Virus record (IMG/VR): IMGVR_UViG_3300047313_000026
Location: 1 to 43,842 of that record
Direction: 5' to 3' (one strand)
DNA from: a virus
Lineage: Duplodnaviria > Caudoviricetes
Length of the DNA stretch: 43,842 nucleotides
The position numbers and the translations under genes were made by a program. Position 1 is the first letter of the stretch. Each line of letters opens with the position of its first letter. The notes under the pieces were generated by a model. That model searched no databases, was not told where the DNA came from, and saw only the letters and a list, made by a program, of their open reading frames with translations. Below are positions 18,114-28,369 of the stretch, piece after piece.

Positions 18114-18166
18114 GCTTGAGGTGCTAGTGGGTAACACCGTGGGGGTTCGAGTCCCCCTTCGCGCAC
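18114..18166 (+). other. attP core: 3' half of tRNA-Leu(GAG)
   Basis: gcTTGAGGTgctag anticodon loop, long variable arm tgggtaacaccgt, T-arm GGGGG-TTCGAGT-CCCCC, acceptor 3' strand TTCGCGC-A; no 5' half; ends 7 bp from the integrase stop. Confidence 0.9.
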
Positions 18167-18173
18167 AACAAAA

Positions 18174-19238
18174 TCAGTTCGTTGGCGGCTCGGTCGCCGG
18201 CGAGTCGGTCGGCTGGGAACCGGGCTGGGAACCCCGGAGCACGGCGAGTACCCGCCGCGTCCGGGCGTTATCCTCTTCGCCCGGGGCGAAGTAGTGGGCG
18301 CGTGTCACGGCCGGGCTGGAGTGGCCCATCGAGCGGGCGATGTCATCGACCCGGACGCCCATCTCGAGCGCCAGAGTCGCATGGAGCCCACGCAGCCCTT
18401 GCGGCGTGACCCGCGGAACCCCGGCGACCGCGCACAGCCGCACAACGTGATGGTGAAGCCAGGAGCGCGTCACGTTGCCCCAGAGCCGATCGGTCGGCGC
18501 ACGCCCGGCGGTCCGCCCGGCCAGCCGCTCCTGCATCACCGGCGGGATGGCTAGCGTCCGCACACCCGCCGCCGTCTTGGACCGTGTCACCCACAGCACG
18601 CGGCACTCGTCGTCAACGTCGCGGACGATCCGGTCGGTGACCTCGGAGGCGCGCAGGCCGAGCAGCAGGGCTAGCGCCGCCGCGTCGCCTGCGGCGGTTC
18701 CCTCCTCGAGGGCCGCCGTGACGAACCGGCGCGCCTCGTCGATCCGCAGCTGCGGTCGCCCCCTCGACTTCCGGCCGACGCGCACGATCTCGGCGAACGG
18801 ATTCGCTCGCAGCCAGCCCCGCTTGGCGCACCACACACCGAATTGCTTGGCAGCCACGAGCTCGCCGTGATGGGTGTCGACCTTCGTCATCGCAACGCGC
18901 CGGGCGTACGCGGCCGCCGCAATCGTCGGGGTCAGCCGCCAGAGCGGCGCCTCGCCCTTGGTCTCGAGCTCGAGCAGCGCTGTCAGTCGGTGCTCGAACG
19001 TGCGCTCGGTCGATGCGCGCAATCCGCGAGCACGCAGGCTGAGCACGAACGCGGCGACCGCGTGGCTCACCGTGCGCCCTTCCGCCTGCCGCTCGGCTTC
19101 GTCTCGGAATCGCTGCGCGGCCTGGCGCGACGCAAACGACTCCATGAGGCGCCGGCCGTCTGCGCCAACGAGGACGACGCGCCATCGCTGTCCGTGTTTG
19201 TATGGTCCATGAACTCGCTCCGTTCTTTCTCGGTGCAC
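18174..19238 (-). CDS. int: Tyrosine integrase (354 aa)
   Basis: GLRASEV (R), SKT (K), QGLR (HxxR variant), MGHSS...HY (H, Y); RBS AGGAG; adjacent attP. Confidence 0.93.
   Translation of the reverse strand: MHRERTERVHGPYKHGQRWRVVLVGADGRRLMESFASRQAAQRFRDEAERQAEGRTVSHAVAAFVLSLRARGLRASTERTFEHRLTALLELETKGEAPLWRLTPTIAAAAYARRVAMTKVDTHHGELVAAKQFGVWCAKRGWLRANPFAEIVRVGRKSRGRPQLRIDEARRFVTAALEEGTAAGDAAALALLLGLRASEVTDRIVRDVDDECRVLWVTRSKTAAGVRTLAIPPVMQERLAGRTAGRAPTDRLWGNVTRSWLHHHVVRLCAVAGVPRVTPQGLRGLHATLALEMGVRVDDIARSMGHSSPAVTRAHYFAPGEEDNARTRRVLAVLRGSQPGSQPTDSPATEPPTN
18211..18233 (+). repeat. Tandem GGCTGGGAACC repeats, probable integrase arm-type sites
   Basis: Copies at 18211 and 18223; related AGCTGGGAAG at 18061 on the other side of the core. 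Confidence 0.55.
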
Positions 19239-21127: not shown

Positions 21128-21472
21128 TCAGTACCCCCTGAAGAAAGGGCCGAACACGTCCTTGACGAGTTTCTCGCCCTCGTAGCTCGCGAGCTTGGCC
21201 GTGAACTTCTCGACCATCGAAGTCGCGAGCGCGGCGGCGATCCCGCGGGCGGCGACGAGCACGGCCGCCTTGATCTCGTCGTGCTGGGCGGCGAGTTCCG
21301 CTCGTACCGTCGGCATCACTTCATCGACGATGTACTTCTTGACCTCGTCGGCGATCGCCTGCGCGGTCGTGTATTCGATGTTGCGGAGCGTCTGCTCTTG
21401 CAGCTTGGCGCCGATCTCCGCGGCCATCTGCGGGATCATCGCCACGACGCTCTCTTCGATGCTCGACATCAC
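21128..21472 (-). CDS. Hypothetical helical protein (114 aa)
   Basis: RBS GAGG, coupled to upstream stop, strong codon bias. Confidence 0.65.
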   Translation of the reverse strand: MMSSIEESVVAMIPQMAAEIGAKLQEQTLRNIEYTTAQAIADEVKKYIVDEVMPTVRAELAAQHDEIKAAVLVAARGIAAALATSMVEKFTAKLASYEGEKLVKDVFGPFFRGY

Positions 21473-21660
21473 GCACCTCGCATGTAGAACAGCGTGATCG
21501 ACAGACAGTGGAACTCGCTGTCACTCGACTGCGTGACCACCTTGTCGACGAGCCTCAGGTCGCGATGGCTGGCGAGCCAGTCGGTGACCTTGTCGCCGAG
21601 CCGGTCGCGCTCCTCGCGCTTCGTCGAAGTGAATACCTGCACTCCATTGAACTGGTCCAT
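21469..21660 (-). CDS. Conserved myxobacterial-type small protein (63 aa)
   Basis: FNGVQVF...RLGDKVTDWL...VDKVVTQSSDSEFHCLSITLFY recalls a small protein family I know from Myxococcota genomes; RBS GGAGG. Confidence 0.75.
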   Translation of the reverse strand: MDQFNGVQVFTSTKREERDRLGDKVTDWLASHRDLRLVDKVVTQSSDSEFHCLSITLFYMRGA

Positions 21661-21675
21661 TGCCACTTACCTCCG

Positions 21676-21764
21676 TGCCGAGAGCTGGAATCGAACCAGC
21701 GTTTGCCGCGAGGGGTAGATGCGAATCGCTCCCCGCGGCCGCGTCACCTGCACGCCGTCTCAGC
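21676..21764 (-). ncRNA. tRNA-like RNA with extended, anticodon-less arm (89 nt)
   Basis: Acceptor GCTGAGA/TCTCGGC+A, D-arm GCGT-GCAGGTG-ACGC, T-arm GCTGG-TTCGATT-CCAGC, 35-nt hairpin GCCGC...GCGGC in anticodon position. Confidence 0.7.
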
Positions 21765-21766
21765 AG

Positions 21767-21880
21767 ACACCGACGAGAGAGGGATTCGTCGGCGCTGGTG
21801 GGTTCACGCTGAATGCCCCAGCGTCCAGGTCCACCACCTGGCGGGCGCGCGTCGAGCTCTGGAGAACAACGCGCGCGCCA
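21767..21880 (-). other. Three abutting stem-loops upstream of the tRNA-like RNA
   Basis: Stems at 21839-21880, 21796-21836 and 21767-21795. Confidence 0.6.
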
Positions 21881-21887
21881 CAACGAA

Positions 21888-22046
21888 TCAGCGACAGCAG
21901 CCCGTGAAGCCCGAGGTCGGGACCATCACTCCTTCCGTCGTAAAGGAGGTGGTGTCGCAACCGGCCGCGACGGCGCCCAGGTCGACGGTTGCGAGCGTGC
22001 GGATGGACTCGGGCTTGAGCGCGAGCTTGCGTTCTTTCTTCTTCAC
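21888..22046 (-). CDS. Lanthipeptide/RiPP precursor-like peptide (52 aa)
   Basis: MKKKERKLALKPESIRTL-ATVDLGAVAAG leader plus Cys/Thr/Ser-rich core; RBS GAAGGAA; GTGA-coupled to exonuclease. Confidence 0.7.
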   Translation of the reverse strand: MKKKERKLALKPESIRTLATVDLGAVAAGCDTTSFTTEGVMVPTSGFTGCCR

Positions 22047-22963
22047 GGTGTTCCTTCGGTGGTGACGGTTGGCGCGCCGGTCATCCAGTCCGGATCCGGC
22101 GTAACGGGCTCGGAGTCGAGGAGCTCCCACGGCTCGATGCGCTGCGAGTAGCCGCCCCACAGGTCGGTGGCCTCGTAGACCTGCAGCTTGTCGAGCCAGA
22201 TCTCGCAGAGGCGCTCGCCTTGCTCGAGCGCGCTCGGCAGCACCTCGTAGACCTGGACGATGTACGGCGGCACGTTCTCGACCGCGACGATGTAGACCGA
22301 CCTCGGCGCGCGGCCGCGCTCGTGGGCAATCGCGGCGCGCTGGTCGGCGAGCTGCGCGTGATAGCCCATCTTCTCTGCATCGCGCAGGAAGCGGAACGGC
22401 GCCGCACACCGCGTCGTCTTGAGCTCGATCAGCTTGTCATCGCCGCGCGCGTCGGGCGTCGACTGCCGAGCGCGGCCGTTCTGCGCCCAGATGATCGAGC
22501 GCTCGTGGATGACGTCGGGCGAGAACAGCAGCCGCTCGGCGTGGGCGTGCGCGTGGATGGCGTCGCAGATGCGGTTCGCCTGCGCCTGCTCGGCGATGCT
22601 CAGGATGACCTTGCCGGCGTGCTCGAGCTGGAACTCCTTCCACGCGTCGCCCGAGCGCGGTGCGATCTTGCTCGGGTTCTTCTTGGCCGGCTTGCGCCAG
22701 ACCGCGAACGGCTTGCCGAAGAGGAACGCATGCACGCCGGAGCCGAGGCGCGACGCGAGCGAGTCCGGCGAGTCGCCCTGGAACGCGAGCATCGCGTGCG
22801 CACCCGACAGGCCGGCGGCGCGCATGTGGTGGAACCGAACCGGCAGCGTGCGCGGATCGACGAGCTTGCGACGCGGCGCCTCGAGCTCGGCCGGCGTGGG
22901 CTCGGCCTCGTCGTCCGCTGGCGCGTCCCAATCCTCGTGCGTGGTGGCGTACGGGTCGGTCAT
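22043..22963 (-). CDS. PD-(D/E)XK exonuclease, RecE/DUF3799-like (306 aa)
   Basis: LGSGVHA, ERSIIW, STPD...IELKTT, GYHAQLA, IVAVE..PPY motifs. Confidence 0.85.
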   Translation of the reverse strand: MTDPYATTHEDWDAPADDEAEPTPAELEAPRRKLVDPRTLPVRFHHMRAAGLSGAHAMLAFQGDSPDSLASRLGSGVHAFLFGKPFAVWRKPAKKNPSKIAPRSGDAWKEFQLEHAGKVILSIAEQAQANRICDAIHAHAHAERLLFSPDVIHERSIIWAQNGRARQSTPDARGDDKLIELKTTRCAAPFRFLRDAEKMGYHAQLADQRAAIAHERGRAPRSVYIVAVENVPPYIVQVYEVLPSALEQGERLCEIWLDKLQVYEATDLWGGYSQRIEPWELLDSEPVTPDPDWMTGAPTVTTEGTP

Positions 22964-23169
22964 GACCGCGCCGCCTTCGCGGCCGCGCGATCGTCGAGCC
23001 ATTCGAGTGCCTTCAGCACGGCGGTCCGATGTGCATCCGATCCGTCCTCCTCGCGGAAGAGCGTCCAGATCTCGCTGCGCACCGCCTGGGGCAGCGCGAA
23101 CCAATGCGGCCGACAGCAGACCTGGTCGACGTGGTGCGACCCGGTACAGCCCAGCACCCGGCACTTCAC
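22960..23169 (-). CDS. Small Cys/His protein (69 aa)
   Basis: CxxxGC...CCRPHWFALPxxVRxxIW motif common in phage early regions. Confidence 0.65.
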   Translation of the reverse strand: MKCRVLGCTGSHHVDQVCCRPHWFALPQAVRSEIWTLFREEDGSDAHRTAVLKALEWLDDRAAAKAARS

Positions 23170-24425: not shown

Positions 24426-24703
24426 GACGGGACGCCTCCGAGCTTCGAGGCGGCGTCGACGGCCTGCGCCCGCAGCGCCGGCATCACCTTGCGGGTCGCA
24501 TCGAGCATCACGATCGAGGCGTTGAGCGTGTCGTTGGGGCCGTCGCTCTCCGCGATCGCCATCGCGAGGGCGCCGAGTAGCGCCGTGACGCGAGCGACGG
24601 CGGGTCGCTTGTCGCCCGCCGTGAGCTTGGTCGCCGCGCGGTACAGCTCGCGCGACTGCAGCATGCACTCGAGGGCCTCTGTCGTGACCGGCGGCGGGCT
24701 CAC
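24422..24703 (-). CDS. Hypothetical protein (93 aa)
   Basis: Coupled both ends. Confidence 0.55.
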   Translation of the reverse strand: MSPPPVTTEALECMLQSRELYRAATKLTAGDKRPAVARVTALLGALAMAIAESDGPNDTLNASIVMLDATRKVMPALRAQAVDAASKLGGVPS

Positions 24704-27589: not shown

Positions 27590-28369
27590 GTGAGCGAACT
27601 ATCTATCTCGAATCCCTCACTCGTTCGCGAGCTCCCCCGCGGCTTGCGGCTCGCCAAGGGAGCGCACAGCAACGCGGAGGACGGTATGTGTGCGATGGAG
27701 GCTGTCGCATGGGTCGCCGGCGAGCCGCACAGCGATCGCCCGCGGTGCGCTTCGCCGGTCCTCGGCGCGATCATGCGCGGACTCAATGACCGATTCACCG
27801 ACGACGAACGCCAGCTGCTCGCACCGCTGATCCCACGGCTGGTCGGCACCCGGGCATCGGCCGACATCGAGCGCAAGCGCGCGTACGTGATGGTCGACGC
27901 GGCGATCCGCGAGTTCGCGCCGATGGGGCTCGATGCGGTGAAGTGGACCGACCTCGCGGATCGGATGCGCGCGATCGCTCCAATCGTCGACATGGCCAGT
28001 GCGCAGTCAGCACTCACGATCTGTCGCGAGATCCGGTCGGCGGCTTCTGGTAGGAGGGGGGGCGCCGACGCCTACGCCGCCGCCGACGCCTACGCCTACG
28101 CCGCCGCCGCCGCCTACGCCGCCTACGCCGCCGCCTACGCCTACGCCGACGCCTACGCCTACGCCGCCGCCGCCTACGCCGCCTACGCCGCCGCCTACGC
28201 CTACGCCTACGCCTACGCCTACGCCGCCGCCGCCGCCGCCGCCGCCGCCGACGCCGACGCCGACAAACTAAGTCCGGAAGAACGCGCGCGCATCCGCTCG
28301 CTCGCCCGCCGCCCGATCGTCGAGGCCACCGTGCGCGCCTACGGGCGCGCGATCGCCATCGTGGCCTAG
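27590..28369 (+). CDS. Phage protein with GxH...CAMEAVAW...HSDRPxC domain and Ala/Tyr/Asp repeat
   Basis: RBS AGGAG; recognisable unannotated phage family. Confidence 0.75.
   Translation: MSELSISNPSLVRELPRGLRLAKGAHSNAEDGMCAMEAVAWVAGEPHSDRPRCASPVLGAIMRGLNDRFTDDERQLLAPLIPRLVGTRASADIERKRAYVMVDAAIREFAPMGLDAVKWTDLADRMRAIAPIVDMASAQSALTICREIRSAASGRRGGADAYAAADAYAYAAAAAYAAYAAAYAYADAYAYAAAAYAAYAAAYAYAYAYAYAAAAAAAAADADADKLSPEERARIRSLARRPIVEATVRAYGRAIAIVA
28064..28264 (+). repeat. In-frame GCC/TAC/GAC triplet microsatellite (about 200 bp)
   Basis: Only three codons used; encodes ADAYAAADAYAYAAAAAY...ADADAD. Confidence 0.92.

Follow-up and report, generated by a model that had tools for sequence, protein, structure and literature searches.

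A tRNA-shaped, non-decoding RNA with a variable arm in a temperate phage of a likely Kofleriaceae host: a candidate antisense RNA

The phage, its likely host and the early block

The window (the whole stretch of DNA analysed, 43,842 nt) is a whole soil-phage record of 43.8 kb with a 99-nt terminal overlap and 70% G+C, which we read as complete. Its genes include terminase, portal and tail-type genes, an integrase, a cro-like helix-turn-helix gene and an exonuclease VIII-like gene, a gene set that marks the phage as temperate. The RNA described here lies on the minus strand of the leftward early block (operon), 2.4 kb upstream of the integrase, where the order is the exonuclease VIII-like gene, a 51-aa open-reading frame, the RNA and then, directly, a gene for a 63-aa protein (Table 1). 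The latter is the phage copy of a conserved Myxococcota family of 60-70-aa small proteins of unknown function, with a predicted beta-alpha-beta-beta fold (pLDDT 93); a fold search gave no structural match at E ≤ 0.001, the best being archease at E 0.02 only. The protein has about 25 close homologues; in three sources homologues are labelled TrmFO/GidA, probably wrongly. The 51-aa open-reading frame (21888-22043, minus strand) lies just upstream of the RNA leader, has a basic N-terminus and a Thr/Cys-rich end, is kept in runs X2 and X8 and matched nothing in Pfam, PHROG or NCBIfam; it resembles myxobacterial lanthipeptide-type precursors. Elsewhere in the window, a low-complexity repeat (28060-28260) forms an Ala/Tyr-rich stretch within a 259-aa gene (27590-28369).

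Table 1 Features of the RNA locus and its surroundings (window coordinates)
Feature	Position	Strand	Basis or remark
tRNA-shaped RNA body, 89 nt up to discriminator A73	21676..21764	-	sequence, predicted fold, pair counts in relatives
D arm, C8 and G14 instead of the usual U8 and A14	21741..21755	-	C8/G14 in 4/5 members
Enlarged arm replacing the anticodon arm, candidate guide	21705..21739	-	fold, relatives; swapped in run X8 relative
Invariant UUCGCA, then U or C (complement of AUG/GUG plus CGA)	21720..21725	-	5/5 full members
Pyrimidine run complementary to a Shine-Dalgarno-type purine run	21710..21715	-	run 3' of CA(U/C) in 5/5
T arm with canonical T loop	21684..21700	-	predicted fold, relatives
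Hairpin H2, 4 nt upstream of the RNA; 6-nt arm-tip complement at 21783-21788	21769..21793	-	pair count, tip-leader search
Leader long-range helix, possible pseudoknot; 5-nt loop segment pairs with 21797-21801	21797..21841	-	same place in 6/6 loci
Hairpin H0, after the stop of the upstream open-reading frame	21845..21876	-	alignment by eye, without pair count
Exonuclease VIII-like gene and 51-aa open-reading frame (upstream context)	21888..23002	-	protein-family scans
Shine-Dalgarno straight after A73, then 63-aa gene (gene 21469-21660)	21469..21674	-	synteny anchor
Integrase	18174-19238	-	context, separate from RNA
attP core, 3' half of tRNA-Leu(GAG), 53 nt, after integrase	18114-18166	-	context, separate from RNA

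The attP stretch is matched with zero mismatches in 9/9 publishable host loci checked (a tenth locus, in an unpublished genome, was left out), and a search of 251 genomes across the phylum, which scored three candidates per genome, gave three matches at E ≤ 1e-15, all in the family of genome G006, whose locus (L399) is from Kofleriaceae. This tRNA-Leu match points to Kofleriaceae (Myxococcota) as the likely host. As the attP is a stretch of its own, the RNA is not the attachment site. The relative G001 carries near 24555-24625 of its record an attachment-like tRNA fragment unlike the tRNA-Leu one common to the window and G002. Two unpublished genomes (G046 and G047) are included in the family and order tallies given below, and no conclusion depends on either.

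The RNA body and its relatives

The RNA reads as the original prediction had described it, tRNA-like with an enlarged arm at the anticodon position. Its predicted fold has a 7-bp acceptor stem with a U3.G70 pair, a 4-bp D stem, a 35-nt arm (25 nt of insert closed by a 5-bp stem), a variable loop of 4 nt and a 5-bp T stem. The claim that the acceptor, D and T arms are intact and the T loop canonical is borne out by the fold and by the relatives. C at position 8, the U3.G70 pair and the lack of an encoded CCA are likewise confirmed in the window sequence; the discriminator N73 is A. Among the features of canonical tRNAs, the 7-nt anticodon loop and U8/A14 are absent, and there is no G3.U70 pair. 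ARAGORN called zero tRNAs in the window and nothing reached the Rfam gathering score for the RNA, the sole overlapping match from the tRNA clan being to tRNA-Sec (22.7 bits against a threshold of 47). Folding energy is no better than that of shuffled sequences (z -0.52; 57 of 200 shuffles fold as well), so the case for the RNA being real rests on its relatives. A contig from one run spans 21400-22100 and is identical to the window, which, as it may be the source of this DNA, serves as an assembly check only.

We collected relatives with the downstream 63-aa protein as anchor, which gave 10 viral, 80 metagenome and 80 genome loci. Three of the viral loci hold the odd RNA (L297, L298 and L299, with L298 and L299 identical over the RNA region), six hold neither this nor a tRNA, and in one (L300) a tRNA-Arg(UCU) fills the same slot with the same upstream hairpin. 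Two metagenome loci (L307 and L308) also have the odd RNA, and none of the 80 genome loci does, these being mostly host copies of the 63-aa gene. The family therefore has five distinct members (window, L297, L298, L307 and L308), all in the same gene slot. Over hairpin H2 and the acceptor, D and T stems of these five, 97.2% of 108 cells are paired, a count biased in its own favour by a structure derived from the window sequence, with 0/500 shuffles as high and slid controls at 31-43%. Both sides have changed in 9 of 23 pairs, including five of the seven acceptor pairs and two of the five T pairs. All members have 7/5 acceptor/T stems, G14 and A73; position 8 is C in four and A in one, and CCA is encoded in two. 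The D stem of L298 is poor. In L308 the D-loop GG is changed to AG alongside a T-loop change of U55 to G, which, going by general tRNA structure, may be a kept elbow contact. A contig of run X8 has 47 letters of the D and anticodon arms replaced by 68 others, and keeps the T arm, the acceptor and part of H2. Conservation extends to the leader, which has a hairpin, a 5-bp long-range helix and H2; the middle pair of the helix is U-A, C-G or A-U over six loci including the tRNA-Arg one, and as pseudoknot-like topologies are present in 29-49% of random windows, only the position and covariation of this helix count.

Covarying stems, CCA in two of the five members and a true tRNA in the same slot argue for selection on the tRNA body rather than for decoding, as had been suggested from the window alone. 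No strong match to a known Rfam family appeared, and the relatives carry compensatory changes in place of random decay. As far as comparison of these loci goes, the RNA is tRNA-derived, non-decoding and under selection, and it is not a product of decay, an intron or an attP remnant. A plausible ancestor, judged by sequence, is the array tRNA-Gly(GCC), genes for which in four host-family genomes agree with the RNA in D-arm pattern, in having a base other than U at position 8 and in a variable loop of 4 nt. Kofleriaceae array tRNA-Gly(GCC) genes with A8 and an unusual D loop were noted at L508, L511, L515 and L516. A further tRNA-array member, L510 (G137:C32:23019-23178), has intact acceptor, D and T arms around a much enlarged central region and was missed by ARAGORN.

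Further copies were sought in viral contigs and host genomes. A pattern scan of viral contigs gave nine candidates, all ordinary tRNAs, further such scans gave chance matches except for known members and two hairpin-plus-cloverleaf loci (L207 and L224), and a scan anchored on the exonuclease found nothing. The single 24-nt match among INPHARED phages was judged to be chance. No prophage copy was found in host-family genomes either by pattern (0/138) or via neighbour proteins, and a loose pattern matched in 65/147 genomes with no member among the 30 loci checked. Model R1, applied to 138 host-family genomes with 23 candidates scored per genome (not exhaustive), matched in 16 and gave no prophage copy: 14 matches were ordinary tRNAs, one was an odd array tRNA-like gene and two were, on our reading, weak non-tRNA matches. 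The loci L224:4001-4117 and L207 (minus strand) each show a hairpin resembling H2, its tail U-rich, immediately ahead of a cloverleaf; the cloverleaf has a 12-nt anticodon loop in L224 and is tRNA-Asn in L207. A 137-kb phage with the same small gene (L302 = L013) carries two tRNA-like genes with 8-nt anticodon loops.

The enlarged arm and a candidate host partner

The arm had originally been described as an irregular hairpin, a description that falls short: the arm also contains an invariant motif, and its sequence is complementary to what a translation start looks like. The inserts are 24-44 nt long (25 nt in the window) and differ widely across the five members, all of which have UUCGCA, followed by U in four and C in one and thereafter by a pyrimidine run. 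The complement of the arm consists of a purine run, a spacer, AUG or GUG and then CGA-A, which is the layout of a translation start. The pyrimidine run is unpaired within the predicted arm in L297 and L307; it is paired in the other three of the five, where structure alone could account for it. The UUCG of the arm also conforms to YUNR, the U-turn motif of recognition loops in antisense RNAs. Loose 30-letter ends in runs X3 and X7 fit the arm layout, on single low-depth contigs and so as a hint only. No shared bulge-helix-bulge was seen in the predicted folds of the inserts.

In three phage records (the window, G001 and G002), no gene start or shared leader motif fits the arm. An 11-bp site inside a virion gene, shared with G001, is estimated to be no better than chance, and the start of the downstream 63-aa gene itself pairs weakly.

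Exact matches to the 11-mer number 125 in five host genomes; of the 30 loci that were read, two are orthologous starts of a 350-aa lipoprotein-like gene with GAGGGG 3 nt before the AUG, a spacing equal to that in the window arm. Of 138 family genomes, 105 have the gene. Promoter-like hexamers (by eye) stand just upstream of it, a FadL-type barrel gene precedes it, and after it come another lipoprotein-like gene and one for an OmpA/TSP3 protein, whose TraB match is below threshold; the lipoprotein itself has no Pfam, NCBIfam or Atlas assignment. Allowing up to three mismatches, the 22-nt complement of the window arm has two matches in 147 host-order genomes (control 0), one at the lipoprotein start with the start codon in register (G137) and one at an unrelated place (G098). 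The 22-nt length was chosen after the lipoprotein site had been seen, and it was the shared 11-mer that had led to this site, so the ranks below are partly by construction. For codon-like motifs a reversed-pattern control is unfair, the 11-mer count of 2-57 per genome mostly reflecting coding sequence.

Pairing energies at the lipoprotein leader are -52.6 (L297), -51.7 (window) and -51.8 kcal/mol (L308), and the site comes out on top, alone or in a tie, when ranked with 421 core sites from 1.15 Mb of further host DNA. Among 1693 seed sites of G137, in a ranking that covered 0.89 Mb (12% of the genome) and had its runner-up within 1-2 kcal/mol, the lipoprotein site stands first for the window and L297, 36th for L308, 201st for L307 and 277th for L298. 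When the 3' parts of the arms were shuffled, p was 0.11 for the window, 0.0135 for L297, 0.28 for L308, 0.69 for L307 and 0.78 for L298; only L297 is significant, so independent support comes from one relative, and the other three (L298, L307 and L308) give none. The L297 arm, which has a different 3' part, pairs with the same leader through the 11-bp core and three further blocks. A loose pattern drawn from this pairing matched 81/147 genomes and so does not discriminate. With the whole RNA, the predicted net binding is -19.5 (window), -12.6 (L297) and -13.4 kcal/mol (L308).

Within the lipoprotein family the site is restricted: of the 50 orthologue 5' ends that were read (30 + 20, of 105 found) six carry AUG-CGA-AU, and most of the others fit poorly or not at all. 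The net binding of the window RNA ranges from -9.9 to -19.5 kcal/mol for these six and from 0 to -4.6 kcal/mol for four others. Four of the six are in genomes with a tRNA-Leu matching attP exactly, and genomes outside the clade match too, so attP does not single out the clade with the lipoprotein site. Among 91 lipoprotein homologues MRI is the commonest start (16/91), and MRK, which the L298 arm would need, occurs in none (0/91). Two host genomes (L498 and L554) have genes, ImuB-like by sequence, which start AUG-CGA-AUC-GCU (MRIAC) and could be further partners; these starts lack a Shine-Dalgarno fit.

On these comparisons, we give the RNA about an even chance of acting as an antisense RNA at a host translation start, and regard the lipoprotein mRNA specifically as a possible partner, with rather less than even confidence. 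The early leftward transcript would be cut at the tRNA body by host RNase P and 3' nucleases to leave a stable small RNA, the RNase P step being suggested by established tRNA processing and the precedent of C4. The arm tip would pair first with AUG/GUG and the second codon, and the 3' strand of the arm would then zip onto the Shine-Dalgarno sequence, blocking initiation. For the window and L297 the predicted partner, in one Kofleriaceae clade, is the first gene of a lipoprotein-lipoprotein-OmpA/TSP3 cluster, and a lower level of this surface complex might, speculatively, limit reinfection or alter cell contact. The full reading, in which temperate phages of Kofleriaceae use a tRNA gene as a re-targetable antisense chassis, its body recruiting host processing enzymes and its swapped arm silencing the first gene of the surface lipoprotein-OmpA cluster as an RNA-based receptor exclusion, is put forward tentatively and is, taken whole, doubtful.

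Alternative readings and known systems

The tRNA body may instead be a processing or stability signal of the early operon that frees the downstream small gene and leaves its Shine-Dalgarno sequence at the new 5' end, with the insert as protein-binding or neutral cargo that has no RNA target, a reading that we think rather unlikely. It would suit the Shine-Dalgarno sequence found directly after A73 in three of the five members and in the tRNA-Arg locus, the ability of an ordinary tRNA to occupy the slot, the free replacement of the arm in the close relative of run X8 and the failure to find a target in the phage. However, CCA and a spacer precede the Shine-Dalgarno sequence in the other two members, UUCGCA is invariant with CA(U/C) varying only as a start codon would, and the pyrimidine run is still there in L297 and L307, in which it lies unpaired.

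An unlikely alternative is a CI-like control RNA, in which the arm tip pairs with its own leader and so switches termination or processing of the leftward operon. A complement to the arm tip, 6-9 nt long, lies within 45 nt upstream of the RNA in all five members (genome-null p of 0.003-0.04 per member, relative to random windows of phage DNA and with the more favourable of two G.U settings), L298 carries a matching 2-nt change in tip and leader that gives 9 bp, and the tRNA-Arg locus has only 3-6 as a tip-type leader complement. P4 CI likewise pairs with an upstream site, seqA (PMC4825925). Yet the 45-nt window was picked post hoc and the signal is weaker at 135 nt, random windows give duplex energies that are just as good (p 0.11-0.50) and the site lies at three different positions among members, so that this signal supports a CI-like role only modestly. 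Such a role also leaves CA(U/C) unexplained, and neither a conserved downstream (seqC-like) complementary site nor a terminator-like site at H2 was called. Pairing with the own leader and pairing with a host start could both be real.

Host defence enzymes may cut or modify the ends or anticodons of tRNAs, and we judge it very unlikely that the RNA serves as a decoy for such enzymes or competes for them. The acceptor and elbow are intact, no cleavable anticodon loop is present and two of five members encode CCA, the link to defence being by inference only; a decoy predicts neither an invariant motif with start-codon-like variation nor complementarity to a host start site, and the earlier idea of an anticodon-nuclease decoy gained no support. 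Decay of a tRNA gene, a tRNA with an intron or a remnant of an attachment site would fit the lack of a folding signal above shuffles and the poor D stem of L298, but is largely refuted by the compensatory changes across the acceptor and T stems, the differing insert lengths without a shared bulge-helix-bulge and the real attP.

The best reading, judged from sequence comparison, is that of a putative RNase P-processed antisense RNA, C4/CI-like but tRNA-bodied and probably aimed at a host mRNA, and it is this reading that we compare with known systems. Bacterial Y RNAs (YrlA) and tmRNA mimic tRNA without decoding; the RNA has no Rfam or ARAGORN match to these, and no Ro60-like gene is present among the 52 window proteins scanned. 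It shares its slot, upstream hairpin and T stem with a canonical phage tRNA (the tRNA-Arg UCU of L300) and differs in the missing 7-nt anticodon loop, the 24-44-nt insert and the lack of any ARAGORN or Rfam tRNA call. Allo-tRNAs and other irregular tRNAs of soil metagenomes and phages have non-canonical cloverleaves with 8/4 or 9/3 stems and keep their anticodons (PMC5389517), whereas here the stems are 7/5 and the anticodon arm is replaced. In the literature covered (few subscription papers) we found neither a description of this RNA family nor a natural case of a phage antisense RNA that is built on a tRNA scaffold and directed at a host mRNA. A phage gene that has the shape of a tRNA but is missed by tRNA finders is usually discarded as a pseudogene; here one such RNA is conserved, its slot is filled by a true tRNA in another phage and a candidate host target can be named.

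The P4 CI RNA is processed from a structured leader transcript and pairs with an upstream site in its own transcript (PMC4825925, PMC10111431). A short leader complement is likewise present here, but it is 6-9 nt only, lacks a downstream counterpart and belongs to a phage with a separate repressor/cro-like region; the RNA gave no Rfam C4 or isrK match. C4 of P1/P7 is a multi-stem-loop phage RNA that RNase P releases from a precursor and that uses its loops to pair at a ribosome-binding site (PMC5320573; PMC12197685), which is the same combination of processing and ribosome-binding-site pairing as is proposed here. The loops of C4 are complementary to a ribosome-binding region in the antirepressor operon of its own phage. 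Unlike C4, the window RNA has a full four-arm tRNA body with D and T loops, a single contiguous arm is its putative guide, no gene start in three phage records fits as a target, and there is no Rfam C4 match at E ≤ 10 (none at E ≤ 5 for four relatives). Its anatomy is compatible with C4-type RNase P processing from a precursor, and the analogy with C4 and CI drawn in the original prediction is supported. If the antisense reading is true, this would be a natural instance of an antisense guide carried on a tRNA body and directed at a host mRNA, it would suggest which receptor may serve phages of a myxobacterial family that has hardly been cultured, and it would extend control of the C4/CI type from phage immunity to the silencing of host genes.
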